DNA of 64,000 nt from Escherichia phage vB_EcoM_Lh1B. The stretch lies in sequence record OK428535.1. One strand, given 5' to 3'. Made by a program: the position numbers and the translations under genes. The notes below the pieces were generated by a model. That model had not been told where the DNA came from. It saw only the letters and a program-made list of their open reading frames with translations, and made no database searches. Positions 6,191-30,823 of the stretch are shown here, piece by piece. The first letter of the stretch is position 1, and each line of letters begins with the position of its first letter.

Positions 6191-6218
6191 TTCCCCNCGG
6201 GGAAGNGGNTTTNTTTTT
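6191..6218 (+). terminator. probable terminator (low-quality sequence)
   Basis: ttcccc-n-cggggaa hairpin followed by a T-run, inside an n-rich patch. Confidence 0.3.
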
Positions 6219-8908: not shown

Positions 8909-9032
8909 AGAGTATCCTTTCAGTGGTAAAAACTTTCTCGTTTAACAGCCAACTTTACTGTCATATTAAGCCCACTATGTTGTTTTTAGAACGATTTAGT
9001 ATGCACCACAAACCTACTATAAGGAAACAACC

Positions 9033-9581: not shown

Positions 9582-9620
9582 CTAAGAAATTAGTAGTTTC
9601 TAAGAAATAAATAAAAGGTA

Positions 9621-9644
9621 CCTACCTCCCTTCGGGGAGGTAGG
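9621..9644. terminator. bidirectional rho-independent terminator
   Basis: CCTACCTCCC-ttcg-GGGAGGTAGG hairpin with TTCG tetraloop and A/T-rich flanks, between convergent genes. Confidence 0.6.
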
Positions 9645-9661
9645 GCCTTTATTTTCTTTGC

Positions 9662-10333
9662 TTACATGCCGAGTGACTCGGACAATGTTTTTAATCCGGT
9701 GTAATCGCGCTTTTCAGCTAACTCACGGATTTGGCGTTTGTTATCTGCCATTGCTGAGTGCAACACTTGGTCACGTGCAACAATAGCGGCCAGCAACGCT
9801 TTACATTGGGCTACTGTAAACGGACTGTGCTTAGTATTCAGCGTATCGAGCCAGTATTCTGGTGCGGTATCTGCCTGAATGTATTGACCGAGGATGGTAC
9901 GCGACGATTCATCGGCTTGAAAGTGACTACCTTCAAACTCGATATAACCATGGCGCTCATCTTCGTAGCGGTGGTCGAGTTCCAACAGCATCTTCTGCAC
10001 GTCTTCGTAAATGTAACGTGCGGTAGATTTCAGATTCCCGCGAATTTCGTCGAGGTCAATCTCCAGCACATTAGCAATAAACTCTTTCGTGCGTTTCAAT
10101 GTGAAGTTAGCTTCAATCTCCGACATCTCATACAGCTTCATGCGTGCCAGGGCTTCTTTATCAGACATCCCTTCGATGAGATGGTAATGGAGTAATGCAC
10201 AAAATCCGGTACGACCCTGATCCTGCGCACCGATTCGTTCCATGAAATTACCGTGACGATCAATCGGCAAATCACGCTGGAAATAACNGGCGCGGATCTC
10301 TTCGTTCGTTAAGCTTTTGTCAGTAACAGACAT
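9662..10333 (-). CDS. hypothetical protein, last gene of the rSAM/Cys-peptide operon
   Basis: 223-aa ORF with GAGGAGG RBS; overlaps the upstream gene by 25 nt. Confidence 0.55.
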   Translation of the reverse strand: MSVTDKSLTNEEIRAXYFQRDLPIDRHGNFMERIGAQDQGRTGFCALLHYHLIEGMSDKEALARMKLYEMSEIEANFTLKRTKEFIANVLEIDLDEIRGNLKSTARYIYEDVQKMLLELDHRYEDERHGYIEFEGSHFQADESSRTILGQYIQADTAPEYWLDTLNTKHSPFTVAQCKALLAAIVARDQVLHSAMADNKRQIRELAEKRDYTGLKTLSESLGM

Positions 10334-10875
10334 TCGTCCTCCTCAATCAGGCCAAGTTCTAACAACAAACCGAAGTCCAGCATCTGGAAGTCCTGATCGA
10401 GGTTACCGGCCCACAACAGAGAAATGTTGTGTTGCTCTTCTTCTTCCAACTGCGGGAGCAGGTGTTCTTCGAAGATTTGACGTTCTGTGTAATAAGCGTC
10501 AACCGGGTTATTGGAGCGTAAGTTACGAATACGCATCCGCGGGAATGACAAGCCCAATGCCACTAAACTTTCAGGACTGGCTTCATCAATAGAGTGACGT
10601 AGCAGTTCGATTTTGTGGCGTGGGTATGCAAGCAGTCGCTTCTCAAAGCCAGGGTTGCGCTTTTCGATTTCCGCGACAGACTCGTGTCCTTTCTCAACGC
10701 AGTAGACCGGGATCATCACATTCAGCCCGTATTTAATCAACAGGCTTTGGATTTCATCAGTGAAGTCTTCCCCTGCCACAATTGCGTGCACATTGTACAG
10801 CTTGCTTTTGCGCAGGAAGCGATCGACCAAGTGCAGTTTACGCTTCGTAAAATTGTGAATCAGTATTGACTTCAT
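10309..10875 (-). CDS. hypothetical protein (start uncertain)
   Basis: ORF 10309-10953; most plausible start is the ATG at 10875 (MKSILIHNF...) with GGAG RBS; overlaps the rSAM/SPASM gene. Confidence 0.5.
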   Translation of the reverse strand: MKSILIHNFTKRKLHLVDRFLRKSKLYNVHAIVAGEDFTDEIQSLLIKYGLNVMIPVYCVEKGHESVAEIEKRNPGFEKRLLAYPRHKIELLRHSIDEASPESLVALGLSFPRMRIRNLRSNNPVDAYYTERQIFEEHLLPQLEEEEQHNISLLWAGNLDQDFQMLDFGLLLELGLIEEDECLLLTKA

Positions 10876-12166
10876 TCTGGGCTCCGTTTTGTAATTTTTC
10901 TGCTTCGGCACGTTGGCGTACACAACGTGAACAATAGCACATGGATTTATCATGCAAATCTGATGCGCGAGTCGTACCAGTTTTCTGATACCAATATTCC
11001 GCCGCCATCAGCTTCGCAGTAGTCCAACCACACTGACGACGCTCGGCGTGATACGCTTTACGGTCTTCCAGTGTACCTTCACCGTTTTCGTACGATGCTG
11101 CTGCGCAGCTACCGCAGCTGTGTTTCATCGGACACCCTAAACAAGTTTCTGGGTAGTTGGTGTACTGCGTTTGAATCTCTTCTAACAGCTTACCGCCGTC
11201 CAGGCTCACAAACTCACGACCGACCAGTTCCGCTACAGCAGAGCGGGAAGTTACCGTGGACATGAAACGGTTACAACCGTAAATCTTGCGATCAAAGCCG
11301 AGACAGGTCATGTGCGTCAACGTACCGCAGTACGGTTTCAGGCGTTCTGGGTCGAGACGAACAGAGTCGTCATGTAAGAGTTTGTCACGCCAATCCGGGT
11401 CCCAAGTTGCCATAAAGTTCAGGCCATCCGGGATGATGTGCGTAATCGTGTTACGCGGGTTGGTGTGCAGACCCTTCTCAATCCAGTAGTCCATCACGTC
11501 CATCATCTGGTTCGCGATATCCAACGCCATATGGCGCGGCAGGATATCTTCGTACGTCACGTTACCAGAAATGGTACCACCGCCGGACATGTCAATTAAC
11601 GATTTCATGCTGGCGGCATAGTGCGGCAATGTATCGATCGTAAACGTCGCCTTTACGCCCAGTTCAGCGATGCCAACACTCTTCAGATAATTGTAACCGC
11701 GTACCGCAGCTTCGTACGACCCTTCACGCGTCGTGGTAAAGATACGATATTTGTCATGGACTTCAGGTAAACCATCGATGGAGACCCCAATAGACAGTTT
11801 GTCTTTCCAGCGCTCGATAATTTCTTTGTTCAGCGGACGGTCCAGAAGCGTACCGTTCGTGGAGATACTGAACATATACGGGCGATTGTGTTCTGCGCAT
11901 AACTTCTCTGCGGTTTCAAAGGCCGCCAAAAGAAGTTTAGGCTGCATGAACGGCTCACCACCGATGATATCGATGATGACTTCAACGTTCGGGATATCTT
12001 TATCACGCTCGAAACAAGCGTGGATAAAATCAATCACGTCTGCTACTTTGTTGTTACGCGGATATTTACGCTCGTAGCAGTATTCGCAGTCCAGGTTACA
12101 TGACAAGTTAGTCACAACCTGATACGTGCGTGGTGTGTACTGGATTTGCTGTTCGTTATTACTCAT
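10838..12166 (-). CDS. radical SAM enzyme with SPASM-type C-terminal Cys cluster (anSME/peptide-maturase-like)
   Basis: CNLDCEYC (Cx3Cx2C) at residues 23-30; C-terminal CLGCPMKHSCGSC plus further Cys residues typical of SPASM auxiliary Fe-S domains. Confidence 0.8.
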   Translation of the reverse strand: MSNNEQQIQYTPRTYQVVTNLSCNLDCEYCYERKYPRNNKVADVIDFIHACFERDKDIPNVEVIIDIIGGEPFMQPKLLLAAFETAEKLCAEHNRPYMFSISTNGTLLDRPLNKEIIERWKDKLSIGVSIDGLPEVHDKYRIFTTTREGSYEAAVRGYNYLKSVGIAELGVKATFTIDTLPHYAASMKSLIDMSGGGTISGNVTYEDILPRHMALDIANQMMDVMDYWIEKGLHTNPRNTITHIIPDGLNFMATWDPDWRDKLLHDDSVRLDPERLKPYCGTLTHMTCLGFDRKIYGCNRFMSTVTSRSAVAELVGREFVSLDGGKLLEEIQTQYTNYPETCLGCPMKHSCGSCAAASYENGEGTLEDRKAYHAERRQCGWTTAKLMAAEYWYQKTGTTRASDLHDKSMCYCSRCVRQRAEAEKLQNGAQNEVNTDSQFYEA

Positions 12167-13073: not shown

Positions 13074-13094
13074 TGCAGGTTGCTCCAGTATTTT

Positions 13095-13982
13095 TTAAAT
13101 ATAATCAATGGCGAATAAAGGATCTTCGTCTACGTTAGCGCCAGGCACCAGTAACATCGGGTCGTGATAGGCAGCTAAAATTTTGTTCAGGTCGGCGTGT
13201 CTTTCGTTCAGACGTTTCAAATCGGCCAACGTTACCGAACGACCACGAATCTCAGAAACAGCTTCTGCTTCTTCTTTCGTTAAATCCACCTTCGTTAAGA
13301 GGAAACTTACCAGCTTACTCAAATCCGCTTCTGTCGCCGGGTAATCCCCATATCGGGTTTGAACCAGGTGTTGCATCCACGGCTTACGAATACGTTTGGT
13401 GATTTCAAAATCGTCAGTCAGCGCATACCAGACAGAACGCTTTTTATCCCACACGAACTTATAGCTATACGCCATCATGTCCGCTAAACGGGTGATGCCG
13501 AGTTCTTTATACCCCTCGATATCGATGTATGGTTCGGTGTCGAAATACGTTTCCGTATCGGCAGGTACCAGTACAAAGTAGTAAGGGAACGAGCCCAGAT
13601 AGTCCGGACTCCACCAACGGCGCGCCATCGGTTTTGCTTCAAGTTCGTCAAACGGTGTAAACATCAGTTCTAAATCGACGCTGTTGTTCAAAATCCCTTC
13701 GCTGAAGAAATACTTACCGTCGACTAACACGCCACGAGAGTTACCATCGCCGTTAAAGATAACGATGGCCTCTGCAACCATATCACGGATCTTAAACGTA
13801 TTTTCTACGGTGTAGTTCTTCTTGTCGGTCAAGAAGCGACCACGAACCTTTGGCCACTCACCAGGAATCTGTGCAATCAGTCTGACTTTGTCAGCAAGGT
13901 GCGCACGCACTGAATCTGGGGAAGATAGATGCAGCGGGTGGTTGAATGTGGTTTTATACGCAAGATGCAAATCGTTTTTCAT
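13095..13982 (-). CDS. hypothetical protein co-operonic with rSAM enzymes
   Basis: 295-aa ORF with GGAG RBS immediately after the peptide genes; no motif recognised. Confidence 0.55.
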   Translation of the reverse strand: MKNDLHLAYKTTFNHPLHLSSPDSVRAHLADKVRLIAQIPGEWPKVRGRFLTDKKNYTVENTFKIRDMVAEAIVIFNGDGNSRGVLVDGKYFFSEGILNNSVDLELMFTPFDELEAKPMARRWWSPDYLGSFPYYFVLVPADTETYFDTEPYIDIEGYKELGITRLADMMAYSYKFVWDKKRSVWYALTDDFEITKRIRKPWMQHLVQTRYGDYPATEADLSKLVSFLLTKVDLTKEEAEAVSEIRGRSVTLADLKRLNERHADLNKILAAYHDPMLLVPGANVDEDPLFAIDYI

Positions 13983-14004
13983 TTAATACTCCGAACGTTT
14001 TCTG

Positions 14005-14211
14005 TTATCGATTCCCCGCTCCACGGCTACAGCTTCCGCTGCAGGACCAGCTACACCCACCATTACAGTTATAGTGAGAAAGCGGTAAGCCAGCCAGGTT
14101 ATTTGTGGTCGACACGGTGCCCTGGTTAGCGATATAGTTGTTTGCCTGTGCGGTTGTAATGTAACCTTCTACCGTAACGAGACGGTTTCGAATAGTCTTG
14201 AGACTGATCAT
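14005..14211 (-). CDS. Cys-rich peptide, short paralog (leader + truncated core)
   Basis: 68 aa; leader MISLKTIRNRL... and core SHYNCNGGCSWSCSGSC are paralogous to the two larger peptides; GGAGG RBS. Confidence 0.55.
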   Translation of the reverse strand: MISLKTIRNRLVTVEGYITTAQANNYIANQGTVSTTNNLAGLPLSHYNCNGGCSWSCSGSCSRGAGNR

Positions 14212-14226
14212 ATAAGCCTCCGTCAG

Positions 14227-14631
14227 TTAGGAGTTAGGACCTGAACAACCACCAGAACACGCGCCGGAGCAGTTTGCGGAACAGGATTTGCCACAGCCGC
14301 CAGAGCAGTTACCAGTACACGTTCCGCTACAACCACCAGAACATGAAGAGCTGCAACCCGTACAGCTGCTGCTACAGCCCGATACACAGTTTGCGGAACA
14401 AGTCGACCCACAACCACCCGTAGCAGACCCAGTACACCCGCCAGAACAACTCGAGCAACTAAAAGAGCATGTGCCACCACAGTCATAGTGCGAACGGCCT
14501 TGACCTGCGAACAAGTCGGCGTTATTCGTAGCTTTATTGCGAATGTAGTTTTGCACATTCGTGGTGTTCTTTAAAGCGTTTGCATCGATCGTGTTTAATC
14601 GGTTATTCAGTTCTTTTAATCCAATTGCCAT
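14227..14631 (-). CDS. Cys/Gly/Ser-rich repeat peptide (candidate rSAM substrate)
   Basis: 134 aa; about 45-aa helical leader (MAIGLKELNNRLNTIDANALKN...) followed by an about 85-aa core of CSGGCSG-type repeats with more than 20 Cys. Confidence 0.65.
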   Translation of the reverse strand: MAIGLKELNNRLNTIDANALKNTTNVQNYIRNKATNNADLFAGQGRSHYDCGGTCSFSCSSCSGGCTGSATGGCGSTCSANCVSGCSSSCTGCSSSCSGGCSGTCTGNCSGGCGKSCSANCSGACSGGCSGPNS

Positions 14632-14641
14632 TTAATCCCCC

Positions 14642-15034
14642 TTAGCGACCTGAACAGCCGCCGGNGCAGGCCCCGGNGCAGTTTGCGGAANAGNAGCCNC
14701 CNCAACCNNCTGAAAAGTTACCGGTACAGCTACTACTGCAACCACCAGAACAACCAGAGCAACCAGAACAGTTACCGCCACACGTCGAAGAACAGCTACC
14801 GATACAAGAAGCAGAACAGCTTCCTGAACAGCTCGAACAGCCATGCGAGCAACCGTTAGAGCANGTCCAAGAACATGTCCCGCCGCAATCTAGCTGTGCT
14901 TTCGTCCAACCCCCAAATCGGTCTGCTGCATTATGGGCTTTAGAGGCCACTTGCGCCTCGATGCGGGGGCCTGTCGCCATGTTAGCTTCGACNATCTGGA
15001 CGCGGTTTCTGACGTCTTTAATAGATATCGCCAT
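14642..15034 (-). CDS. Cys/Gly/Ser-rich repeat peptide (candidate rSAM substrate)
   Basis: 130 aa; same leader/core architecture (..LDCGGTCSW.CSNGCSHGCSSCSGSC..); AAGGAAG RBS. Confidence 0.65.
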   Translation of the reverse strand: MAISIKDVRNRVQXVEANMATGPRIEAQVASKAHNAADRFGGWTKAQLDCGGTCSWXCSNGCSHGCSSCSGSCSASCIGSCSSTCGGNCSGCSGCSGGCSSSCTGNFSXGXXGXXSANCXGACXGGCSGR

Positions 15035-15045
15035 TACGCTTCCTT

Positions 15046-15090
15046 AAAAAGTAGAACGAGCGGACTATGTCCATAAACATAGTCCGGCTC
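15046..15090 (-). terminator. stem-loop / partial terminator between fibre gene and peptide genes
   Basis: Inverted repeat CGGACTATG...CATAGTCCG with T-run on the minus strand, directly upstream of the RBS of the first peptide gene. Confidence 0.4.
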
Positions 15091-15099
15091 GTAAACAAG

Positions 15100-16302: not shown

Positions 16303-16349
16303 TGCCAAACTCCTTTGATTGGGGCTTCCTTGCCCCATAGCGCTATCTG

Positions 16350-19300
16350 TTAGGTACGGAACATAAGATTGACCTGGATAATATCAGGCTGTTGACGTCC
16401 TCTCTCGTTCACCCAATCGTGTGCAATCGTTAACGTAAGATCATCGCCTTCCCACGACACGATCGGTGGTGGGAATAAACCCTGAGCGCCCGTGGTAACA
16501 ACCGGGATTGCACCTGCCACATTCGTAAACGTATAGCTACGACTGTTCAGAACAACCGGTGTGCCGTGGGTCTCTCCCGGCTGTGGTAAGATTTGAATCT
16601 TACTATCCGAAAGATCGGTGGTGATTGGTAGACCCCCAGCGTCCGTGAAAAGCCAAGAGCAAATATNCTGGTTNGCTGTTTCGAGCGCTGAAGAACTCTT
16701 CACAGCCGCGAAAGTAAAGGTGCACGGCACGCCTGCTGGCAGAGAGTGCTGTTTGTGGTGCACGGTATGTGGTGACGGCAATAACACTTCTGGATTTTCG
16801 TCAATGTTAACATCCGTACCTTCCGCCTCGACGTTGTAGAAAAAGCCATCCACCGCCTCCCATGGGGCAACGTGGACATTAAAGGTCGTTTCTACTCCCG
16901 GTGTACCTGGGACGACGAATTTACTTTGCACCACCACCATCATAGTTCTTGAGGTCGGTGAGAAAGCGGGCGTTGGAATACCTACCCACTCCATTCCCAA
17001 CGATGCCGCTTCACCGTTCTCATCAGCCGTTACCGTCGCGATTGTTGTAGGATGTTTCCAAAACGCCCCCGACTTGTTTGCCTGAGTAAACGCCGGCAAA
17101 GTTTTCAAGCCTTCGAAACGTTTGGACACCATCGCTTTACCGCGACGCTGTGCGTCAGATACGGTATAAAGCAACTGACTATCCAGATAGCCTTTCGTAG
17201 CATCGATCGACAAAGGACCCATCGCTTCTTTACGCAATGGTGCCAGTCTGCCCGTTGCTGCATCCCTTCCCACTTCCACATCATGCTTATTCTCAACCGC
17301 CGCATGTTCCAACAGTTGTTTCACCGCCCCCAATCGCTTAGCATGTTCGACGTTAGTCTCGACGACTCGTGACGAGCCCGTTTTAACATACCCGATATAG
17401 AGTTCCGTTTCAGTGTCTGGATGTTGAATCACGTCCATTACGTACTTCGGTGTACCATTTTCTACCTTGGCGTGCAGGTAGAATGTCCGGTTCTGATGGT
17501 TTGTTGGAAATGCTGCGCTGAGGTCAATATACCACGTAGGCAGCTTATAAGTGCTCGAGCCGAAACGCAGGTCAACTTCCTCAGTCACATATACCAGCCA
17601 ACCTTCGGCTGTTTCCACNCCAGCAATGACGACCGATTCAGTCGGGCCACTAAAATTAGGAGCCGCGACAAAATCACTCGACGACATTGCGATACCACCA
17701 CAATAGACGTAGTCGAGAGATGAGTTGTGTAGCATCACCTGATCACGATGAGCCAGATAAGCTGGGCTGACTGGAGTGTGTGATGGTGCCATGCGTCCAA
17801 TGCCGTGTGGAGCAGAAGAACGCGTCCAGGTACCATTAGACAGCGTAAGACCAACACCGTAGTTAAGCGCACCCAAGTCGCCAATTTGGCGCAAGGTTAA
17901 CGTGTGTGGAAGATACAACCCGAACTGCGTACCATCTACTGACACCAGTGTAGGTTGTCCCGGCCGGCGTGTTTTTCCTCCCGTTATCTCACCCAACGTA
18001 GCATAGTTCAAGCCATAGTCGAGGTTGTTATAGAAGTCAAACAATGCCAATATCGCTGCCGGGAATGTTACCTGCCCGTTACTGATTGTTGGTTTCAGTG
18101 TAAAGTAGTAGATATCCAACAAGTTAACATTGTTCACAGTACGCGTACATGCTACTTGTGCTAACGTGAGCGGTGTGGCCGTACCAATGCCGATGAACCA
18201 AATGGAGAACAGTGCCTTTCCGGCGTTATTTGCGGCAAGGATAAATTCCGAAGCATAACCATTCGCAGCGCCAGCCGGTGCGCCGTCGATAATCATCTGC
18301 TTCATCTTATCCCATTCGGCTTGTGACAGCGTCAACCGATCGGCATGAATCGTGAAAGTGCCAGAAACGTTGTGGTAAGGGAATGTTTCTGGTCCTGTGC
18401 AATACCAGCCGTTTAACTCTGTACCAGGCGACGCCGGTGTAACAATGTGGCACATCTGCGACAGATTCTCGTACGTGGTAGAATCTACTACACGACGATT
18501 GTTAGTTGGTCCATACCCCGCTTTACCTGAATAAGTGGTGTTCGGATCAAACTCAACTTCAATTGCCAAACGGGTACGCGGCTGTGACAACCAGATAAGT
18601 CTGGAATTCGCTCCCAGAGTCAGCGGATACGCCATGCCCAGCTCGTAGATAGAACCACGACCTTGGTTTAACATTACCGCACTAAAACTTCTGGCAGTGA
18701 AGTTGTAGTCGCACGACAGGTACTCGTACCAACTCACACCGTCATCTAACGTTGTAATCGTGACATAAGGCATTAGGTCGCGATCGCCTGCATGTCCTTG
18801 CGAAACGATATACTTGTCTTGCGATGTTGCAAAGGTTCGGTTATTAGCTTGACCTTCGCCCCATTTCCGGCTCGGAATCCCAATCTCAGCGCCACCGTTA
18901 TAACGAACCGTGGTAAGATCGGCCACAATAGGGAATCGATCAGCACCTTCCAGCGTTATCGTCATTGAACTACAATCAACAACAAAGCTTGACACCCATT
19001 GTTTAAAGTTAATAGTTTGCCCTGTAGTAGAAGCAAACCAAACCGTTGGAGTTAAACCAACACGAAAGTTCAGCCCATCCACACCAATCGCGTGATTACA
19101 TTCCGGACCATGGACAAATTTCGTCGCACTATTCCACTTCGCCGATGCGTCTGCGTAGATTTGTGTTACTGGCGCTACCAACACATCTGTATCAGAACGN
19201 TTCTGACCCTGACGCAAGTAGATATTATCTCCCGACGTTAACATCCCACCTGTTAACACATCCGCCACAAACGTGTTGCTACCACCCAGATTAAGTTCGT

Positions 19301-21533
19301 CGAGTGCGATGCTACGCATACTCACGAAATAGTCACCGGAGGTAAGCACAGTACGGAGCAGATAAACCCGCTCGTTGCAAACGATCAAATCGTTTGTTGA
19401 TGGATCAACAACCCATGGAGCGGTTGTAACTGACACCGGCCCGTTACCATTTCGGTAATCGCCCAACTGAACTTTAACAACACGATGATGTTTTGCATGG
19501 TCAATGGTGCCGTCAAAGATGACCAGGTAGTACGCACCGTCACTGCCTAAGCAGATCATTGCATCTGTACCGGTAATCACAATAGCAACCAGATTCACCC
19601 CAGGATACGCCGACATTCCAGCGGGTCGATAACGTACGGACGTCTGCTGCATATTTTCCAGCGTATTGCTTGGCGACACATCAGCATAGGCGTAATAGAT
19701 AGCCCAGTCACCTGGTGGATTCCCGTTAGAACCATTACGGAGCGAGTAAACCTTACCAGACTCGTAACGCGCCAAACCTTTCTGCCAGGTTTGGTTTTTG
19801 GTATACCCTTCGTAGTTCCCCTGGACAGGTATAGGCAAGAAGTTATTGTTGCCGTACGATGATCCGCCGACAGTCCATGCGGGCAACAGCGTAGCAATCT
19901 TGTCATTCAGTGTGTCAATCTTTTGTTCAAGCAAGAAGCCCTGACGCGAAGTGACCATCTTATCCGAGGTAGTGTCGATTGCATCCCACAGTTTAGCCAA
20001 ACCTGTAACAGACGTGGATGCGTACGGCACGTTATCGAGATCTGCAATGGTGTGGGTGTGCGTTGTAAGCGCTTTGCCTGATAGCACGGTGCGCAACGCA
20101 TTAGTAACCGGTTTCTCCAGCGGCCCGGTATTGTTCATCTTCTCAATACCGAAATCTGCCGCGGTTAAGGTCAGATGCATCTGCCCGTTTGAATCTAATA
20201 CAAACCCTTTACCATTGACTGTATACGTGTCGTCCACATATCCGTCGAGTTTGTTCTTCAAGTCAGTAACAGCTTTTTGGGAAATCGCTGTGGANGCCGC
20301 AGCGGACGCCGAAAGGTTAGTAATCGCAAACAAACCCTGCACAGTTGTGGTTGCTGCAGGCAGCTCCGCATTCATGTAAACTTTGTTTGTTTCTTTACCA
20401 GAGCCGTAAATCTTCAACGTGTCGCTGGACTTGAAGTAGGCGTTTGCTGGAAGTATCTTCACCGAGGTCAAGTACATCTTAACCATATCCGGTGTAACGA
20501 GATACACGCTGTTATACACAGGTGCAAGCACACCTGCATCATAAGCGCCCCACTTGTCACCTGCTTTACCCGAGTGAACCCAAAGCGTGTTCAGACCAGC
20601 ACTGAACTCCGTAGCGATACCCGGTTCGTTGTTATCCCGGTCAGCTTTTAATACCAGCGGTTTTGTCGAGGTGATAATGAACTTCTCACCCTTCATGCTG
20701 ATAACGTGACCAGACGTTGTTTGGAACGTAATCGCGTCGTTATTCAGAACACGCATACGGCCCAGTAAATCGCCCAGGGTATTATCCAGAAGCATGTCAA
20801 CGTGTTTCTGTTGGATGCCACTGGTAGACATTAACGTCACTAACTCTGCCAGTGTACGTCCAAACGCTTTAGTCGCATCCACGGCCTTACCGAGCACAGG
20901 GAGTGCGCCAATGTCACCGCAGGTGTAACCATGTGCATTTTTAATCAGGTGGTGTTGATACATTTCGTCATCAAACACCTGTTTACCGTTCTGATAAATC
21001 AAATCGGTAACTTCGGCAAATGCCTCATCCAGTTCGTGGGCGCGCTCTAAAATACCCAGACGGATATCTTCCAACGCCTTTACGATTTCATCGCGAAGAA
21101 TCGCTTCTTCGAGATCTTTTGGCGGGTCGATTGGCGAGATAATCGGTGGATATTTCATCAGCTCAGACCAATCGCAGTTGCGCGGGTCTTTCATATCCGT
21201 CTTAACCAGATACTTGCCGATTTCAGAAGCAGGGATGCGGTACTGTCGACCAACCGACAACAACTCGTATTCTACCTCTGTGGCGTTCAGCAGCATTATG
21301 CTGCCGTATATTGCATCGTTCTCAGCCTCGGCTAATTCCTGGAAGTAATGTCCTAAGAAATAATCAAGACCTTCTATTAACTTGCGTTTGGTTCCGGTTA
21401 TTTTATCGGTAACGGTTAACGTTAACCCGATGCGATAGAACGGTGCTTCGACGGGAATGACCGTCGAATAACGGTTCGGGTAAGTAGCGGTACTGAGGGT
21501 ACCGTTAAACTGCGCCGCATCTTCTCTCGGCAT
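16350..21533 (-). CDS. tail fibre protein (about 1727 aa)
   Basis: Giant ORF; ATG at 21533 with AGGAGT RBS; N-terminal anchor motif (PFY...GLDYF) shared with the other fibre genes. Confidence 0.7.
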   Translation of the reverse strand: MPREDAAQFNGTLSTATYPNRYSTVIPVEAPFYRIGLTLTVTDKITGTKRKLIEGLDYFLGHYFQELAEAENDAIYGSIMLLNATEVEYELLSVGRQYRIPASEIGKYLVKTDMKDPRNCDWSELMKYPPIISPIDPPKDLEEAILRDEIVKALEDIRLGILERAHELDEAFAEVTDLIYQNGKQVFDDEMYQHHLIKNAHGYTCGDIGALPVLGKAVDATKAFGRTLAELVTLMSTSGIQQKHVDMLLDNTLGDLLGRMRVLNNDAITFQTTSGHVISMKGEKFIITSTKPLVLKADRDNNEPGIATEFSAGLNTLWVHSGKAGDKWGAYDAGVLAPVYNSVYLVTPDMVKMYLTSVKILPANAYFKSSDTLKIYGSGKETNKVYMNAELPAATTTVQGLFAITNLSASAAXSTAISQKAVTDLKNKLDGYVDDTYTVNGKGFVLDSNGQMHLTLTAADFGIEKMNNTGPLEKPVTNALRTVLSGKALTTHTHTIADLDNVPYASTSVTGLAKLWDAIDTTSDKMVTSRQGFLLEQKIDTLNDKIATLLPAWTVGGSSYGNNNFLPIPVQGNYEGYTKNQTWQKGLARYESGKVYSLRNGSNGNPPGDWAIYYAYADVSPSNTLENMQQTSVRYRPAGMSAYPGVNLVAIVITGTDAMICLGSDGAYYLVIFDGTIDHAKHHRVVKVQLGDYRNGNGPVSVTTAPWVVDPSTNDLIVCNERVYLLRTVLTSGDYFVSMRSIALDELNLGGSNTFVADVLTGGMLTSGDNIYLRQGQXRSDTDVLVAPVTQIYADASAKWNSATKFVHGPECNHAIGVDGLNFRVGLTPTVWFASTTGQTINFKQWVSSFVVDCSSMTITLEGADRFPIVADLTTVRYNGGAEIGIPSRKWGEGQANNRTFATSQDKYIVSQGHAGDRDLMPYVTITTLDDGVSWYEYLSCDYNFTARSFSAVMLNQGRGSIYELGMAYPLTLGANSRLIWLSQPRTRLAIEVEFDPNTTYSGKAGYGPTNNRRVVDSTTYENLSQMCHIVTPASPGTELNGWYCTGPETFPYHNVSGTFTIHADRLTLSQAEWDKMKQMIIDGAPAGAANGYASEFILAANNAGKALFSIWFIGIGTATPLTLAQVACTRTVNNVNLLDIYYFTLKPTISNGQVTFPAAILALFDFYNNLDYGLNYATLGEITGGKTRRPGQPTLVSVDGTQFGLYLPHTLTLRQIGDLGALNYGVGLTLSNGTWTRSSAPHGIGRMAPSHTPVSPAYLAHRDQVMLHNSSLDYVYCGGIAMSSSDFVAAPNFSGPTESVVIAXVETAEGWLVYVTEEVDLRFGSSTYKLPTWYIDLSAAFPTNHQNRTFYLHAKVENGTPKYVMDVIQHPDTETELYIGYVKTGSSRVVETNVEHAKRLGAVKQLLEHAAVENKHDVEVGRDAATGRLAPLRKEAMGPLSIDATKGYLDSQLLYTVSDAQRRGKAMVSKRFEGLKTLPAFTQANKSGAFWKHPTTIATVTADENGEAASLGMEWVGIPTPAFSPTSRTMMVVVQSKFVVPGTPGVETTFNVHVAPWEAVDGFFYNVEAEGTDVNIDENPEVLLPSPHTVHHKQHSLPAGVPCTFTFAAVKSSSALETXNQXICSWLFTDAGGLPITTDLSDSKIQILPQPGETHGTPVVLNSRSYTFTNVAGAIPVVTTGAQGLFPPPIVSWEGDDLTLTIAHDWVNERGRQQPDIIQVNLMFRT

Positions 21534-21546
21534 TGCAAACACTCCT

Positions 21547-21592
21547 AATCTGTAATAAAACGGAGACCGCCCTCCCAATAACGGAAGGGCGG
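21547..21592 (-). terminator. intra-operon terminator/attenuator
   Basis: Hairpin CCGCCCTCC...GGAAGGGCGG followed on the minus strand by TTTTATT, between the 1376-aa and 1727-aa fibre genes. Confidence 0.4.
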
Positions 21593-21628
21593 TTTACCTA
21601 CGGACTACCCGCCCGTAGGCAGTCCGTC

Positions 21629-24600
21629 CTAAGAGGCCCACTCACCCGAGTTGTTGCCTTCGTTTCTACGTTCAGTATCCAACGTTTGTAAAATCCAATC
21701 CCATGTCCTGGTGGGGATGTGGAATGGATTACGCTTCTCAATGAGAATCGTCTCGCCACCCGTGCGAAGTTCCACCGGTGTCGTTTCAGTAATCACGAAC
21801 ATCGGATTACCACTACTACCCACACCGTTAATAGTGAACTTCGCTTGTAGCGGCGGCACAGAACCTTCCGGAGGCACGAACACGATGTGAATTGGCTGCA
21901 TCGGTTTCGTGCGGGCAAGAGTCCCAGATATCTGAACAGCTGTTGTCGATGCACTGAAAGGTATAACATTACCCGGAATTTTCTCACTACCCACGACGAT
22001 ATATCCAGGGTAGTTAGAGAGCATTGTCCCATTTACCGACACAAAACGCTCAGTTTGAGTTGGGCGATAAGCCCGCATAAAGCCGTACTTCCATTCACCA
22101 CCGTTAGACGTATAGTCTGCAGGAGCCGACTCAAGTAGCGGAGCACCACGTTTCTGCAGCCCTTTATAAAACGGCGCTGGGAGTTTACCGTTCGGTGCAA
22201 GTTCCGGATAACCCTCACTTGCAGCAGACATCGTGATGTATTCCGTAACCGGGTGATCAACGTTATCTCCAAATGACGCAAAAGGTACCGTTGTTACTGT
22301 CATCTCCTCGTGGCCGGAAGACTGTCTATCTGGTGTCCTTTCAATATACGACTCAAACAGTGAACGTAAATAATGGAAACGATTTATATCCACATCTGAG
22401 ATGATCGGCTGCATCAAACCGTGGTTAATAGTCACGTTGTCTCCAGTTTCAATACCGGAAACGTGGATGGCTAGCGCCCCACCTTTAAAGTAATCGATCG
22501 CATCAAACGGAATGTCGTATTCCATTTCGTAAACCTGCACCAGCGGATTGGCTATCAACTTAGAAACCATTGAGATGCGCAGTACCTGCGTATCAACAAT
22601 GTATCGATAACGTACAAGCCAACGATCTCCAAGCGGCGCAAGCTCACTATCGGTATGAACCGAAAGAAAATCTAAACACTCGGTAGATTGGCTCGTCAGG
22701 TTTTTAATTACCCTCGGATTTTCAAGCACCTTATTTGTAACACTGCCCTGCGTGGTCGAGATGATGCCTCCAGTTGCTTGGTTATAAGGAGACGTGATGA
22801 AGCCACAATTCAATTCTGGACGATTGCCACTCCATCTCAGTACCCTAGTCTTGCTTTTATCATCTGCAGACGGGGCCATGAAGTTTAATGTGATATCGCG
22901 ATCGCGAACAGTTTGCGCTTCCGACAAATCAACATCGACCACCACAGAACCTTCAAACGTCGCCATCCCTTTTTCTTTCGGGTTGCTTGGTGTAAACCAG
23001 CAGTACGGTGATGCGCTTTCTGTGGAGACAACCGCTCCAACAAACACTAGGCTTGAAATGGTGCTATCAAATTTATAATCGAATAACCCTCGGTCTAATC
23101 GAATATAGTGGTTACCAGAAACTGGACTATTAGGGTACGCATAAAGCCACTGTTTAGGCAACGGATCGACTTTGTTTAGCGGTAACATTTTTGGGTTATC
23201 CGTCAACGACCAGTCGGCATTACTCACTCCGTGTGCCAGACGTGTTTCGAAGTGCCGTTTAAGTTCGGACGCCATGCCAAAATCAAACGTCGTTTCAAAC
23301 TCGTAAGTCGTACCTGCAACCAATCCCGTCTCTGGTACATCAATATGTCCGATATAGCCGCGTTCCAAGTTAATACCTTCCGTGTCCACAATAGGTTCGG
23401 CGCGCGAATATAACGCATCGGTTATCATGTTCACATAGAGGTAATGCCTTAAACCATTCGGCGTCTTAACAAACTCCTGCAGGCGGGCAACTTTGGTGTT
23501 TTTATCCGAGGCCCCAACCGCAAAGTCACCGTCGTAAATTGTGAAACGAATTGCGGCTGCTTTAGCGCTATCGTTACACTCGGCACGGAATGCTAAGCAG
23601 TGTTGCTTCCACCCCTCCTTGACAGTCGCCTCCAGATACCCCGCTTCTGTAATACCCGCACCGATAATTTCACCGTCCAGATAAACAGAAACAGCACCAC
23701 CGCCACGAACCCAAATCCGCAGCTTACCAGAGTCGCAACGAACCCACGTTTTCGCCAAGAGGTTAACGACTGACAAATCACCCATTCCGGTTGTCGTTAA
23801 ACCAATCTGCGCACCGTAGTTCGTTTCCGGGACGGCAACCTCAAACCCACTAAAATCAATACCGGCACCGGTATTAATTACCGCGTTCTGCCACGTTCTT
23901 TCCATACGGTTATCTGGAGAGAACCACTGGAACATCGGTGTGGTTTGCAGGTCTATCGAACCAGATACCGTCCCCTCTTTACGTGCGCCATTTAACAGAT
24001 AGAAATAATTCAAATCCGTTATGGCGAGTGTGGTACGTGCTGACCCCACAGTCCAAGTCTTACCACGCACAGCGGCAAAATCGGTCACGGAATCCTCTTT
24101 CGCGTTTGCTAGCGCAGCTGCAACTACGTCTAAACGTTTTGACAAATCGTTCAGAACGTTCGGGGTAACGCCGCGATTACCCGACAAGCCGTTTAGGTTG
24201 GTAGAATATCGAGCGATACCGGGAACTGTTTGAGAAGCCGTTGGGATCTGTAAATCGGCGAAGTTGTGATGATGGCCTTTATCGCTAAGACCGGTAACTG
24301 CTTCTGCCAACGCATCAGAAAGTGGTTTATCGACGTCAGCTGTGTTATCAGCCAAGTCCAGACCCAAATCCTTTTTCGTTAGCGTTCGGCTACCAGTGTC
24401 CATCGGCTGGTTATTCAGCAGCGTTGTCTTCCTGACGTACGAAGACAGATCACCCTCGTACGGTAAGAGCGAAGCTGGGGTGGCTGCTTGTCCTTTGACT
24501 ACATCGCTCGGCTTATCAGTCAGCGTCACAACGCCGGGTTCAGAGGTCGTGGCGGGTTTGGCTGTAACCTTCCCGGTGACGGGATCGGCTTTTGACCCTT

Positions 24601-25759
24601 TGCCCGTGAAAGTAATACCGTTCACCCCGCTAATGTACAGTTTGTTGTCATCCGGGTCAACGGTACCGCCGCCGGTACCAGGGTCTTGTTGATAGCCCAT
24701 GAGAGCGGTGGTGGTCAGCAACGTTGTTCCGTTAAGTGTCAGCTTATCCATCCCCAAGGCACTGCCGGTTGACTCAATACGTAACGTATTGATGCCTGCT
24801 TTCCACTCCATAAACCGGACGGTTCCAGTAGTGTCAGCATACCCACACGCCAGCACGACAGAGCCATTAGATTTAAGAGTGAATGCCTCAGCAGAGAACA
24901 CAATTTCGGATTCGCCAGCAGGAGAACGGAACAGGGCACGAGTACCAGATATCGTCGCGTTAAACACCCCTTTGGATTCTTTCGATACCCATTTAGAAAT
25001 GTACTTGTCGATATCCGATTGTTGCAGGCCCAGTGCACGGACCTCGCTGGTTAATTGACGCAACGTCTTTCCATACGCCAGGAAAGTATCTGGCGTTTTC
25101 AGGTTGACAGGATGCGCCCCGGCCTGCGCCGCGGTAGTCCCATGAGGGTTAGTGGACGCAATGTGTCCGGGGTAGTTAAATGTGGCGATTTCAGTTCCTA
25201 AGCCCAGAACCGTATCTTTCAGCTCGGTAAGCTTTTCACGAATCTGCTCGTTGGCCGCCCCGGCATCTAACTCCACATCATGCACTGCAGAGGCAACATA
25301 CTTTTTATTCAGCATGTCTGACCAAGCTACCGCTGCGGGGGTGGCTGGGTACAGGGAAGGTCGATTACCTAAAAGCAGCCAATCTGCAGCCGTTGGATTG
25401 TTGAGAGCCTTAATTAACTCATCCAACATCTCAATCAGACCACTGTAAAACGTACCCCCGAGCATCTGGCCTTCAAAGACCACTGCACCACGCAGTTTAG
25501 GGTTAATAAGATGCACCCCACAGAACACCGGGGTCGTCACCGAGTCGTCCAACGGCGTTAAAGCATACTCCAGCTCATAGTCCGTCCCGCGGGTAAGCGG
25601 TATGGTCGAGCCGGCGAGCATTACCACCAATCCTTCGAAAAATGGGCGATGATCTAGCATCACCACCCGATCGTTAGGATTGTCGGAGTCGATGATACGT
25701 TCCTCGATGAAGTGACACTCGGGATTTACACCCCGAGGATCGTAAGGATACGTTTTCAT
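21629..25759 (-). CDS. tail fibre protein (1376 aa)
   Basis: Giant ORF with AAGGAG RBS; N-terminal PFFEGLVV...RGTDYELEY anchor motif. Confidence 0.7.
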   Translation of the reverse strand: MKTYPYDPRGVNPECHFIEERIIDSDNPNDRVVMLDHRPFFEGLVVMLAGSTIPLTRGTDYELEYALTPLDDSVTTPVFCGVHLINPKLRGAVVFEGQMLGGTFYSGLIEMLDELIKALNNPTAADWLLLGNRPSLYPATPAAVAWSDMLNKKYVASAVHDVELDAGAANEQIREKLTELKDTVLGLGTEIATFNYPGHIASTNPHGTTAAQAGAHPVNLKTPDTFLAYGKTLRQLTSEVRALGLQQSDIDKYISKWVSKESKGVFNATISGTRALFRSPAGESEIVFSAEAFTLKSNGSVVLACGYADTTGTVRFMEWKAGINTLRIESTGSALGMDKLTLNGTTLLTTTALMGYQQDPGTGGGTVDPDDNKLYISGVNGITFTGKGSKADPVTGKVTAKPATTSEPGVVTLTDKPSDVVKGQAATPASLLPYEGDLSSYVRKTTLLNNQPMDTGSRTLTKKDLGLDLADNTADVDKPLSDALAEAVTGLSDKGHHHNFADLQIPTASQTVPGIARYSTNLNGLSGNRGVTPNVLNDLSKRLDVVAAALANAKEDSVTDFAAVRGKTWTVGSARTTLAITDLNYFYLLNGARKEGTVSGSIDLQTTPMFQWFSPDNRMERTWQNAVINTGAGIDFSGFEVAVPETNYGAQIGLTTTGMGDLSVVNLLAKTWVRCDSGKLRIWVRGGGAVSVYLDGEIIGAGITEAGYLEATVKEGWKQHCLAFRAECNDSAKAAAIRFTIYDGDFAVGASDKNTKVARLQEFVKTPNGLRHYLYVNMITDALYSRAEPIVDTEGINLERGYIGHIDVPETGLVAGTTYEFETTFDFGMASELKRHFETRLAHGVSNADWSLTDNPKMLPLNKVDPLPKQWLYAYPNSPVSGNHYIRLDRGLFDYKFDSTISSLVFVGAVVSTESASPYCWFTPSNPKEKGMATFEGSVVVDVDLSEAQTVRDRDITLNFMAPSADDKSKTRVLRWSGNRPELNCGFITSPYNQATGGIISTTQGSVTNKVLENPRVIKNLTSQSTECLDFLSVHTDSELAPLGDRWLVRYRYIVDTQVLRISMVSKLIANPLVQVYEMEYDIPFDAIDYFKGGALAIHVSGIETGDNVTINHGLMQPIISDVDINRFHYLRSLFESYIERTPDRQSSGHEEMTVTTVPFASFGDNVDHPVTEYITMSAASEGYPELAPNGKLPAPFYKGLQKRGAPLLESAPADYTSNGGEWKYGFMRAYRPTQTERFVSVNGTMLSNYPGYIVVGSEKIPGNVIPFSASTTAVQISGTLARTKPMQPIHIVFVPPEGSVPPLQAKFTINGVGSSGNPMFVITETTPVELRTGGETILIEKRNPFHIPTRTWDWILQTLDTERRNEGNNSGEWAS

Positions 25760-25771
25760 TCAAAAATCTCC

Positions 25772-28700
25772 TTAATCACGAATAATAAGTGTTCGACCTG
25801 ACGTGTTTTTCGGATTGAACGTCATCATCTTGGATGGGTGCGCCGCCGGTGGAATTTTACCTGTATCCACTGGTCGGAACGAACTGTATGAATAGTTGCA
25901 CATCGCGCTGTTCATCTCATTAATCGTTGAACCTGCATCCACCACGCCAGTAAAGAATCTTGCGCGGTTTAAGCCGGAATAGTTAATCGCATAGTCAAGG
26001 AACGTGGCGTAATAACGATTCTTTGTCGGCATCGTGTTCAGGTTAGCGTAAGTCAAACGCGCTTCTGTGTCGGAACTAAACAAACCACCCACGCCGTGAT
26101 AAATCGGCGTACTCGGATCGGTAATCAGTTTCGTCAAGTCGATATAGTCAGGACGGAGACGGGTAGACAAATCCTCAGTCCACGACTCGCCGGTCGACTG
26201 CAAGGTGTATTTCAGCGTCTTTGTTGTCGCGGTTAGCGTCAGCTCAAAGTTGATCGTTTTGGAATCGATGTTAATCGTTCCCACGAACGAAATACCGTCC
26301 GCTGTTCGCGCGTGGCTGAAACGCACCGATGGATTAAGTGCCGTCCAGTCATGGCCGGAACCAGTGACGCCGTTCAAGCCAATAACAACCTGTGCAGCAC
26401 GTCCGTAGTTAACCGCGATTCCCGCATACGTGCTCACGCCGCCTGGAGTGGTAATACGCCCTGCGGTGCGTGCGACGAGTACAGAAATACGGTGCATGAA
26501 CGTGGCCGAGTGATGGCAACACCCAATTACCGTTTCTAGCACACTGTCCGCTGTTGCGGTTAAAGGTGTCCACGTCGCGGTAATGCCGTTATTCTGGAAC
26601 ATCGGGAATGTGTTGTGGACAAAACGATAATNGGTTACAGATAAACTGGTTGTTTTAAACGTCCATTTATCAGCAGCCGGATCGTAGTCCGCTTTCAACA
26701 TAGGCGTATAGCTGCTAGCCTGCGCGTAACGCCAATCGGCATCTATACGTTTTGTACCCGGTGCACCCGTGGACCACACAGGCCCGCCCGTACCGTAAGT
26801 AAATCCGAAATCAGCTTGCGTCATGCCCCGACGAATATGGGCGTTATCATCCTCGATATGCTCGCCTAATTCACGGAACTCACCTAAACGCGTCACGTTG
26901 CGGATTTCTACAAAAACCACACCGGTTTCACTGGTGACGATGGAACCTATTTTGGTCATCGTCTCAGTTTCTGCCGTGTTTGGATTTTCGTAGATAATGT
27001 ACTTGCCATCATNGCCCGCCGCGTCAACATACACGCCAAACTCGGCATCTTCGTGCGTCGCTGGGAATAGCTCAGCCAAGTTAAATGTGGAGAGAGGTAC
27101 TTTGTACTCGCGACCAACGAAATAATCGTTCGCTTTAATAGTAACCATCCAGTCGGTGTAAGTGATGCCGTTTTCAATGATATCCGTGCCGGGTAAACCG
27201 TAACGAATAATGTTGATTGAAGCACCAGAGTCGACTGTCTTCGCAACCTTCTCTATCTCTGTGATGGCGTCCGCCTGTCGGATGACCTCAGCGCCGTCTA
27301 ATGCCAGCGTGGCATCGTCAACCGCGGTGCCGAACTGTACTAAACCGAACTCCGTCGTTGTTGCACGCTTAATCCCGAGCGCATCAGGAGTGTGTGTGTG
27401 ACCGACGACTGCATACTTGTCCAGCTCAGCTCGTTGGAGCGGGGAAATCGGCAATTGCACATCTGGGATGTTCTGTACGTTCGATAAGCCGAAGTTAGTT
27501 TTATCGATGTAAATGGAACNCGTCAGCGGCATGTCGTTGATGTACGATTTAACGGCAACCAACTTGCCCGTAAACTGCTGATCCAATTTCTTGATGAGTG
27601 CCGGCGTTGCGGCCAAGTCCTCACGATCACCGAATTCAGTAGCCAACAAACGGACAGCCATCAGGCCAAGGTCATCGGACTCCGGTGGAACAAAAGTACA
27701 AATGAACGGAACAGACTGAATACCGTTACCGTTAATGGTTACAGTAGCTGTGGATGTTCCGTAAAACAGTCCATCACCACCCGACTCGTTACCCGGCAGG
27801 TACGGCCCGACCGTAGTAGGGTCCAACAGTTTCTTACCGTTGAACTCCAATCCACGGGAATCCGGATAAAGGATGAGTTGGTTAGCCCCACCTTGCCATG
27901 TAATCGGATTGTTCCCGGCGTTAACGGTTTGCGAATCGCGTCCAATAAAACGNATAACCCTCGGGTCAACCGTAAATTGTGCACCCACGCCTTCAGACTC
28001 ATCGGTACCCACTGCCGACGTTATTGAAGTCAGGCCAGGCTTCATGCCGAACGTGCCGTTGATAGACTGTGCAGCCGTCGGTAAACGTAAAAGCTTATTC
28101 GCCAGCGCTGACAGTTTCGGCAACAGATTGTTAACGTAATCTGTCAGCTGCGGTTGCGTTTTTCCGTATACCAGTGTCGCGTCCGAAGCAATACCGTTAT
28201 TCTCCAAAGCACGGATTGCGCCCCACGAATCGCGATGCGGGTTATCCTTGCGCGGCACGTGTGTGTGTGCCGGTGCATCACGGTACAGTTTATCGACAAT
28301 CTGGTGATATTTTACCAGCAGCTGGTACACGTCATTGTTAACGTCAGGTGACGGTGCGCCTGGTAATGAACGAATCTGGACGTAATCGTTCTCACCCGCC
28401 CACCAGTTTAGGTTGACGCCCGATTTAAACTTCAACCATTTAGCGACATCAGTTTTCTGATACCCTGGTGCAAATTCGCTCGGCGGGTTGTCAACGTTAA
28501 AGCTGTAGTTAACGGTTTGCTTGCTTGTTTTAACGGTGATGTCGTAAATGCCGTTACCTTCGCGTCTGACCACGCTAAACTCAACCTCACCCGCCAACTC
28601 GGCATCGGTCAGGCCAGTCGTCAACGTATAGCTGTAATTAGACGAACCGGAACCAATCGCTGTCGTTAAGGTAAGATAAATCGCGCGTTGCTTCAACTGA

Positions 28701-30815: not shown

Positions 30816-30823
30816 AAGGTAAA

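Follow-up and report, generated by a model that had tools for sequence, protein, structure and literature searches.

Three cysteine-repeat proteins encoded beside radical SAM enzymes in SPN3US-like jumbo phages are candidate tail-fibre modules

Introduction

The closest described relatives of the proteins analysed here belong to the CXXX-repeat target family of radical S-adenosylmethionine (rSAM) enzymes, which was reportedly defined by Haft and Basu in 2011. This family (TIGR04114/PF27846 and TIGR04117, with the maturase TIGR04115) is bioinformatically defined, and we know of no biochemical characterisation of it. In the freyrasin/PapB system, six thioethers are formed from Cys to the β-carbon of Asp in CX3D repeats, and in the QhpD/QhpC system an rSAM/SPASM enzyme installs Cys-Asp/Glu thioethers in the small γ subunit of quinohemoprotein amine dehydrogenase. 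Thioether formation by rSAM enzymes is a covalent cross-linking that works in the reducing cytoplasm and survives outside the cell; phage particles assemble in that reducing cytoplasm, where disulfides cannot form. Some phage fibres are built from short repeats, such as the collagen-like GXY shafts and the T4 gp37 needle with its HxH-iron sites. Here we analyse 64,000 nt of Escherichia phage vB_EcoM_Lh1B (OK428535.1; hereafter the window, whose positions serve as coordinates), and within it three adjacent minus-strand genes for CXXX-repeat proteins and the rSAM genes beside them.

Over positions 9600-17000, the window shares 99% identity with Salmonella jumbo phage MET_P1_082_240 and 97.5% with SPN3US (genus Seoulvirus). 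An original prediction, made from the DNA alone, had described the three genes as multiplied precursors of a ribosomally synthesized and post-translationally modified peptide (RiPP), each with a helical leader ending near a Gly-Gly-like junction and a Cys-rich core. Our analysis identifies the SPN3US-like locus as a phage variant of the CXXX-repeat rSAM target family. On balance, we think it somewhat probable that the three genes encode small stand-alone CXXX (PHROG 6085) modules of the tail-fibre tip, covalently cross-linked by the neighbouring pair of rSAM enzymes.

Results

Three CXXX-repeat genes under purifying selection

The three minus-strand open reading frames (ORFs) were found exactly where they had been predicted, and encode proteins of 130, 134 and 68 residues, here called types 1, 2 and 3. 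Each ATG start codon has a strong Shine-Dalgarno sequence 5-6 nt upstream (AAGGAA at 15040-15046 for type 1, AAGGGGG at 14637-14643 for type 2 and GGAGG at 14217-14221 for type 3), that of type 2 overlapping the type 1 stop codon; intergenic gaps are 10, 15 and 22 nt. Alignment of the three peptides bore out the predicted common N-terminal segment, the first ~50 residues being paralogous (pairwise E 1e-13 to 7e-4 within the window). In type 1, the N-terminal helix and an 'ATGPR..QVASKAHNAADRFGGWTKAQLDCGGTCSWTCS' motif are followed by ~80 residues of C-[S/T]-G-x units. This unit is the consensus of the cores, which are composed almost purely of C, S, G, T, N and A and, again as predicted, carry a Cys every three to four residues. 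Several type 1 codons contain N in the window; Cys were counted in the N-free copy of MET_P1_082_240 (99% identical), which removes the X residues. The Cys interval is 4 in 17 of 20 cases for type 1 and 16 of 19 for type 2, occasionally 3, and family-wide it is 4 in 72% and 3 in 25%. Type 3 had been taken for a copy with a truncated core; it retains the junction 'NNLAGLPLSHYNCNGGCSWSCSGSCS' and proved to be a separate conserved orthogroup of ~69 residues, short in all 23 loci of the SPN3US-like group.

The leader regions include the tryptic peptides LNTIDANALK, NTTNVQNYIR and ATNNADLFAGQGR in type 2 and VQIVEANMATGPR, IEAQVASK and FGGWTK in type 1. An AlphaFold2 model of type 2, computed from a six-sequence alignment, places helices at residues 5-20 and 24-35 and leaves the core unstructured. 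Its predicted local distance difference test score (pLDDT) is 40.9 overall and 30-45 in the core, on which the model is uninformative; a core with no predicted fold is consistent with a chain that would need cross-links or partners to fold. The peptides, gp165 and gp162 match no Pfam family at E <= 0.1 (in a Pfam set used without PF27846), and their PHROG labels all read 'unknown function'.

Every related phage examined keeps all three genes in the same order. In the SPN3US-like group, a single gene of each type, in the order 1, 2, 3, is present in 23 of 23 loci, and type 1 has exactly 21 Cys in each, including phages whose maturases are only 63% identical. Intact copies of all three orthogroups are present in phiEaH2, CR5, Kwan and Phobos, phages with maturases only 63-77% identical to that of the window. 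Synonymous sites are saturated (proportion of synonymous differences, pS, 0.6-0.9) against a nonsynonymous proportion, pN, of 0.15-0.5, in leader and core alike. The three ORFs are genuine genes under strong purifying selection in the Cys frame. That they are instead a by-product of a repetitive GC-rich stretch, or a Gly-rich or collagen-like gene read in the wrong frame, has next to no probability: two overlapping ORFs in alternative frames (14223-14558 and 14632-14844), one of them annotated by RefSeq in SPN3US, speak for it, but only the Cys frame is intact with a Shine-Dalgarno sequence and ATG across all lineages, pN lies far below the saturated pS, and the proteins match PHROG 6085. The alternative frames are V/A/L- or P/E/Q-rich strings of variable length and are not conserved, and the repeat period is four residues against three for collagen. 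The shifted-frame origin, which the original prediction had itself raised, was rejected on these grounds.

Annotation of the array is uneven. RefSeq and GenBank records of SPN3US contain only gp166 (YP_009153460 / AEP83999), a V/A/L-rich protein of 111 residues in the wrong frame over type 2, equivalent to window positions 14223-14558 on the minus strand. None of the three genes is annotated in MET_P1_082_240 and several further records, and opposite-strand ORFs are annotated at this locus in Kwan (gp183) and Phobos (gp167/gp168). A few records, e.g. vB_EcoM_EC001, annotate all three.

A leader-only profile searched against 1.84 billion representatives gave 27 matches, essentially all from one and the same group of phages; P0080 and P0085, two long repetitive proteins, were dismissed as spurious. 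In one 222.5-kb SPN3US-like contig (L176, ERZ2916498; 8001-8633), the type 3 gene encodes 210 residues, in which the usual 65-residue N-terminal part and CxGxCSWxCSGSCS are followed by a 145-residue β-rich C-terminal domain; the rest of that cluster is normal. The additional C-terminal domains of this protein and of those at two other loci (L062 and L044) have no PHROG match.

Two irregularities of the records themselves were noted. The window contains 315 N characters in tight clusters (e.g. 1863-1968, 5598-5676, 6148-6213, 30692-30896, 46154-46253 and 52506-52655), which look like masked or ambiguous consensus positions and not like a feature of the peptides; eight fall in the type 1 core (14665-14709), and as one cluster among many these were rejected as a special hypervariable spot. 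In SPFM14 (LR535912.1, L175, 92500-104500), about 130 consecutive 60-nt pieces match window positions 9001-17000 at ~100% identity in the same orientation and reversed order. The apparently divergent cassette of SPFM14 was rejected as a deposition artefact, the order of the FASTA lines seemingly having been inverted with no reverse-complementing. The odd tblastn pattern recurs in SPFM1, 5-10, 12, 15 and 20; if its cause is the same there, their 'proteins', e.g. P0016, P0048, P0049, P0052, P0057 and P0061, would be artefacts too.

The CXXX module in tail-fibre proteins

By sequence comparison, the CXXX module was shown to be homologous to the C-termini of tail-fibre proteins. The link is a conserved junction, N-[A/N]-x-x-[L/F]-x-G-x(4-5)-Y-x-C-x-G-x-C-S-W-x-C (abbreviated 'NAxxLxGxxxxYxCxGxCSWxC'), which joins tail-fibre proteins to a C-terminal CXXX domain in contigs of podo-, myo- and jumbo phages; aligned with these fibre junctions, the leader and junction of the window type score 98.4% in hhalign (E 4e-15). 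The domain combinations were read at individual loci, identified here by L numbers. A 451-residue protein (L040) with the T4-type 'SPALTGTPTAPTA..QIATTKFV' fibre motif matches tail-fibre PHROGs N-terminally (phrog_2631, E 3e-32, and several others) and PHROG 6085 at residues 356-444. Tail-fibre or minor-tail PHROGs are likewise combined with PHROG 6085 in L041 and L009. The L041 protein (401 residues) has collagen-like GXY triplets, and its gene lies between a tail-fibre gene and apparent sheath/tube genes. The 568-residue protein of L033 carries a repeated 'LDLKAPL..A.LTG' and PHROG 6085 at residues 443-531, its N-terminal part matching only a virion-structural PHROG, and the junction-bearing proteins of L034 and L036 have ~255 residues.

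A T7-like 87-kb contig (L009) shows the repeat beside its counterpart. There, the gene of the 206-residue protein P0011 (10001-10621) directly follows the Phage_T7_tail gene, and an adjacent 118-residue paralogue (9632-9988) has the N-terminal tail-fibre-like domain of P0011 followed by collagen-like GXY repeats. The Cys repeat thus stands in place of a known fibre-shaft repeat. In the siphophage-type locus L062, the CXXX gene comes after the tape measure protein, Dit and minor tail genes. Overall, at least six phage lineages have all four parts of a recurrent module: a fibre protein bearing the CXXX repeat, a member of the gp165 family, and two rSAM enzymes, one short and one of the rSAM/SPASM type. 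Our literature search found no paper in which tail fibres are linked to these peptides, to CXXX repeats or to rSAM enzymes, the nearest being a report that places cassettes of rSAM genes in the pelagimyophage 'host recognition cluster' (PMC7029224).

Radical SAM enzymes and the gp165-like protein

Among NCBIfam families, the 442-residue enzyme encoded downstream of the array is best matched by TIGR04115, 'radical SAM peptide maturase, CXXX-repeat target family', with the PapB ranthipeptide maturase second. It starts directly at the rSAM domain, and both its CX3CX2C motif (C22, C26, C29) and its seven SPASM Cys (C279, C297, C341, C344, C350, C353, C378) are invariant in an alignment of six diverse homologues. 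Past the SPASM domain, residues ~378-442 form an extension with an extra Cys cluster, CYCSRC, and the terminal 'QFYEA' is conserved in the SPN3US/Erwinia/CR5 group. The second, short rSAM enzyme has a small C-terminal Cys cluster and no full SPASM domain. In L009 and L040, the two enzymes are fused in the same order, the short one N-terminal (668 residues in L009), and in L016 and L031 an additional short-rSAM paralogue lies between the type 1 and type 2 peptide genes. The peptides themselves have weak, sub-threshold matches to TIGR04114 and TIGR04117; against the curated TIGR04114 cut-off of 20 bits, type 2 scores 16.3 and type 3 13.7 bits, and type 1, with its X residues present, has no match.

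The C-terminal half of gp165 is homologous to the protein encoded between the fibre and rSAM genes in unrelated phage loci (hhalign 98.65%, E 5e-16, 109 columns), and gp165 homologues sit beside a fibre-CXXX gene in five other lineages. Fold comparison of gp165 gave no significant match; the best, weak, structural match is a tail-fibre chaperone.

In scans with an alignment of the 442-residue enzyme, at least 510 viral and at least 257 bacterial stretches matched; the best 80 viral and best 80 bacterial loci were inspected. In 68 of the 80 viral loci, the enzyme has a CXXX-repeat ORF at most a few kb away on its own strand, and at least two of the remaining loci have the repeat in a broken frame. 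The bacterial counterpart is 55 of 80. The CXXX-repeat rSAM family is widespread, and the predicted attachment of the peptides to the adjacent rSAM genes was upheld by this co-occurrence and by TIGR04115 being the best family of the enzyme. We infer that the three proteins are substrates of the rSAM enzymes.

Distant homologues in the database carry PF27846, 'tSAM_targ_Cxxx_rpt'. A distant group of loci has single rSAM enzymes at 23-28% identity. The CXXX proteins of these loci have 200-570 residues with up to 92 Cys and cores of up to 363 residues, usually behind a ~110-residue N-terminal domain that opens with the same 'LKxxVxxE..RR' helix, and sometimes ahead of a globular C-terminal domain of ~190 residues. 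The bacterial relatives include Bacteroidales proteins with a 'SRREFFKKAAK' signal resembling twin-arginine translocation (TAT) signals and short-leader Firmicute peptides. Length varies among L062-L092, ~60-kb siphophage-like contigs (IMG 3300045988) that are otherwise near-identical: the CXXX protein either has ~360 residues and stops just past the repeats, or has ~530-570 residues and adds a ~190-residue C-terminal domain. At L051 and L060, it is the V/A/L frame that runs through the repeat. These forms could reflect frameshifts inside the repeats, real or from assembly.

Genomic context of the array

The array forms part of a single terminator-bounded block on the minus strand, with the virion fibre proteins gp167-170 before it and a DUF4376 protein after it (Table 1). 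The gene order is gp170, gp169, gp168, gp167, the three CXXX ORFs, gp165, short rSAM, rSAM/SPASM, gp162-like and DUF4376; gp170, gp169 and gp168 have 1237, 1376 and 1742 residues, respectively. The SPN3US proteins gp168-170, which tailless particles lack, belong to 'paralog family C', are related to phiKZ gp131 and are candidates for baseplate or tail-fibre components, and gp167 is a virion protein, detected in SPN3US virions (PMC5105663, PMC5694885). The gp162-like gene is co-transcribed and conserved within the cluster, the DUF4376 protein weakly matches a tail-protein PHROG, and a tail assembly chaperone gene is also near the array. The block closes at a hairpin between the convergent gp160 (plus strand) and gp161 (minus strand) genes, a perfect, GC-rich stem of 10 bp with U/T tracts on either strand, which is the sole convincing terminator in 9.5-16.6 kb. 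A scan for sigma-70 promoters gave nothing useful, and tRNA and Rfam scans across the window were empty.

Table 1. Coordinates of the genes and elements discussed (window positions unless a locus is named)
Feature	Position	Strand	Remarks
CXXX-repeat protein type 1, 130 aa, 21 Cys	14642..15034	-	PHROG 6085 E 2.6e-35
CXXX-repeat protein type 2, 134 aa, 20 Cys	14227..14631	-	PHROG 6085 E 1.8e-41; TIGR04114 16.3 bits
CXXX-repeat protein type 3, 68 aa, 4 Cys	14005..14211	-	PHROG 6085 E 2.8e-25
gp165-like accessory protein, 295 aa, PHROG 8030	13095..13982	-	between CXXX array and short rSAM
Short rSAM enzyme, 304 aa	12159..13073	-	CX3CX2C at residues 29-36; GGEP motif
rSAM/SPASM peptide-maturase homologue, 442 aa	10838..12166	-	TIGR04115 E 3e-36; PapB E 1e-32
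gp162-like protein, PHROG 7988	10309..10953	-	~190-214 aa; 188 aa from the start annotated in SPN3US
DUF4376 protein, gp161	9662..10333	-	last gene of the operon
Bidirectional hairpin terminator, strong	9621..9644	.	closes the operon
gp167, coiled-coil 'viral fiber' protein, 412 aa	15100..16338	-	directly upstream of the CXXX array
gp168, gp169, gp170, giant baseplate/tail-fibre candidates	16350..29485	-	head of the minus-strand block
Extra short-rSAM paralogue, 303 aa	L016 4542-5453; also L031		IMG/VR 3300014543_000002, 3300045988_078609
Loci with wrong annotation	L001 18624-18959; L007 3608-3985; L008 5589-6410		

Discussion

A model for the three proteins

The peptides look like enzyme-cross-linked parts of a host-recognition apparatus rather than secreted peptide antibiotics. 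As fibre-tip modules, they would be made late, alongside the baseplate and fibre proteins gp167-170, and modified in the reducing cytoplasm by dedicated machinery encoded downstream, namely the gp165-like protein, the short rSAM enzyme and the rSAM/SPASM enzyme. The N-terminal helix and junction may be recognised by gp165 and/or the rSAM enzymes. By analogy with every characterised close relative of the SPASM enzyme, this enzyme and its short partner would then convert the repeated Cys thiols into carbon-sulfur cross-links, probably thioethers, and the unstructured C-[S/T]-G-x chain could thereby become a rod or knot that is rigid and withstands both redox changes and proteases. The helical ~50-residue N-terminus and the NAxxLxGxxxxY junction would in that case act as a recognition and/or oligomerisation-attachment element rather than as a leader that is cut off. 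The products would be part of, or tightly bound to, the tail-fibre/baseplate host-recognition apparatus, and a type 1:type 2:type 3 hetero-oligomer is possible. Virion incorporation, hetero-oligomer formation and thioether chemistry are inferred.

Several points weigh against this model. The cores contain no Asp or Glu, the acceptor of PapB and QhpD, each Cys being followed by S/T, then G/S, then G/S/T/N, so that carbons of Ser, Thr, Gly or Asn would have to be the acceptors. The 442-residue enzyme scores 125.6 bits against a curated cut-off of 350 for TIGR04115 and 113.6 against 340 for PapB, far enough below that the chemistry of those families is not transferable. Small size and a leader/core appearance are also what RiPP precursors have, and true short-leader RiPPs seem to exist among the bacterial relatives. 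Proximity to tail-fibre genes is also possible for cargo genes ('morons'). Finally, the published virion proteome of SPN3US contains gp160 and gp167-171 and none of gp161-166 (PMC5105663, PMC5694885). Since the annotation holds only the wrong-frame gp166 and not the correct ORFs, that proteome could not contain the three peptides; the cores would in any event be hard to identify by proteomics, being Cys-rich and, if so modified, heavily cross-linked.

Alternative explanations

The alternative closest to the original prediction is a classical RiPP, in which the leader is removed and the cross-linked cores are freed at lysis as a diffusible product, bacteriocin-like, signalling, or directed against competitors or superinfection. 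Part of this stood up to analysis: the proteins are paralogous and translated-looking, and as in RiPP precursors they are short (68-134 residues), with a helical N-terminus of ~50 residues, a repetitive CXXX core and an rSAM/SPASM gene within 2 kb on the same strand, several precursor genes lying directly upstream of rSAM/SPASM maturase homologues. Apparent short-leader RiPPs and TAT-signal exported forms among the bacterial relatives, and the absence of gp161-166 from virions, also speak for it. What did not stand is the Gly-Gly cleavage and the natural-product role. The proposed leader-cleavage sites, ADRFGG, ADLFAG and NNLAGL, are part of the conserved junction, which is internal in tail-fibre proteins, and Pfam, NCBIfam and PHROG scans of the operon proteins found no C39 or other peptidase and no transporter; Gly-Gly leader cleavage was therefore rejected. 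The scans also showed no immunity gene and no match to hidden Markov models (HMMs) of PqqD or the RiPP recognition element. PHROG 6085 is a C-terminal domain of tail-fibre proteins, and the array lies inside a baseplate/tail-fibre block, at the same position in the structural tail modules of four phage architectures. Moreover, the fixed three-gene set, the fixed 21 Cys of type 1 and, in L176, the C-terminal domain fused to type 3 are characteristic of structural parts and not of natural-product cores, which typically diversify. We consider a classical RiPP unlikely.

Two further explanations accept the phage context or the Cys array and dispense with a cross-linked virion part. The modified peptides and gp165 might be transient scaffolds or chaperones that fold or trimerise gp167-170 and are left out of the finished particle. 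Their site among fibre genes, with DUF4376 and tail assembly chaperone genes near, the tail-fibre chaperone as best, if weak, structural match of gp165, and the lack of gp161-165 in virion proteomes all suit such an assembly factor. In other phages, however, the CXXX domain is covalently within the fibre protein, which argues for a structural fate; an intramolecular chaperone domain that is later cleaved would be compatible with this, but no autoproteolysis motif was seen. A non-virion role seems quite unlikely to us. The free thiols might instead bind metal or Fe-S clusters, coordinating metal along the fibre, much like the His-Fe needle of T4 gp37, or acting as a metallothionein-like sink, with the rSAM enzymes doing something else. 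A content of 25% Cys at regular spacing among small side chains is what such an array would have, the cores lack acidic acceptors for PapB- or QhpD-type thioethers, and the original prediction had already suggested looking for metal by inductively coupled plasma mass spectrometry. Yet no metallothionein family was matched in Pfam, the spacing is CxxxC and not CxC or CC, unmodified thiols exposed on a particle outside the cell would undergo uncontrolled oxidation, and the tight, widespread co-occurrence with rSAM/SPASM enzymes of the peptide-maturase type would be left unexplained. We regard metal binding as very unlikely.

Implications

Beyond the SPN3US-like group, the cross-linked fibre-tip reading leads to a wider proposal, which we find plausible but somewhat doubtful: many unrelated phages (jumbo and P2/Mu-like myophages, T7-like podophages and siphophages) may have recruited RiPP-maturase-type rSAM enzymes to cross-link, through thioethers, a Cys-repeat domain at the distal fibre end, which would define a hitherto unrecognised class of virion protein with enzyme-made cross-links. 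SPN3US-like phages would have this domain split off as three small proteins, possibly forming a 1:1:1 hetero-oligomer on baseplate fibres, for host recognition or fibre stability.

If true, RiPP-type radical chemistry builds virus particles and not only antibiotics. It would give phages a new covalent reinforcement besides HK97-type isopeptide bonds, a way to stabilise extracellular fibres covalently while still in the reducing cytoplasm, and would assign a function to the two unexplained 'radical SAM superfamily proteins' of SPN3US-like jumbo phages. These phages serve in biocontrol and as a genetic model, and three missing or mis-annotated genes are added here to their genomes. The amber-mutant genetics and established virion proteomics of SPN3US make both the chemistry and the biological role tractable, and a protease- and redox-resistant fibre module could serve phage engineering.

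Comparison with known systems

The nearest relatives are the CXXX-repeat rSAM target systems, which share the Cys at each fourth residue, the long runs of small residues and an adjacent rSAM/SPASM enzyme best scored by TIGR04115. The phage proteins differ in scoring under the curated cut-offs (16.3 against 20 bits for the peptide, 125.6 against 350 for the enzyme) and in an N-terminus that has neither a TAT-like signal nor the short leader of the Firmicute type. The phage-encoded locus also adds a second, short rSAM enzyme and a gp165-family protein, and its genes lie in a tail-fibre module and are homologous to tail-fibre C-termini.

Freyrasin resembles the phage peptides in its repeated i to i+4 Cys units, and PapB is the second-best HMM of the 442-residue enzyme (E 1e-32, residues 22-357). 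The phage cores, however, lack Asp and Glu and have at least 20 units as opposed to six, the enzyme score is 113.6 against 340, and the peptides give no sign of leader removal or export. QhpD, to which the same enzyme is matched through TIGR03906 (E 3.7e-15), shows that an rSAM/SPASM enzyme can cross-link a subunit kept in a larger assembly and not only make a free natural product, but its substrate has a different architecture with acidic acceptors, in a periplasmic enzyme context as opposed to a virus particle. In the His-Xaa-Ser system (HxsA, HxsB, HxsC; TIGR03978 / TIGR03977), too, a substrate built of short-period repeats goes with a SPASM-type and a short rSAM enzyme; of the two phage enzymes, the SPASM one matches HxsB (E 4e-21) and the short one HxsC (E 6e-12). 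These scores are well under the cut-offs, the repeat is HXS and not CXXX, and that system has no phage or fibre context. Among structural proteins, the likeness is to repeat-built fibre shafts and tips, in which a short-period repeat of small residues follows a tail-fibre N-terminal domain and 'NAxxLxG...Y'. Those repeats fold without a dedicated enzyme, whereas the CXXX repeat has no predicted fold and the rSAM machinery is always co-encoded.

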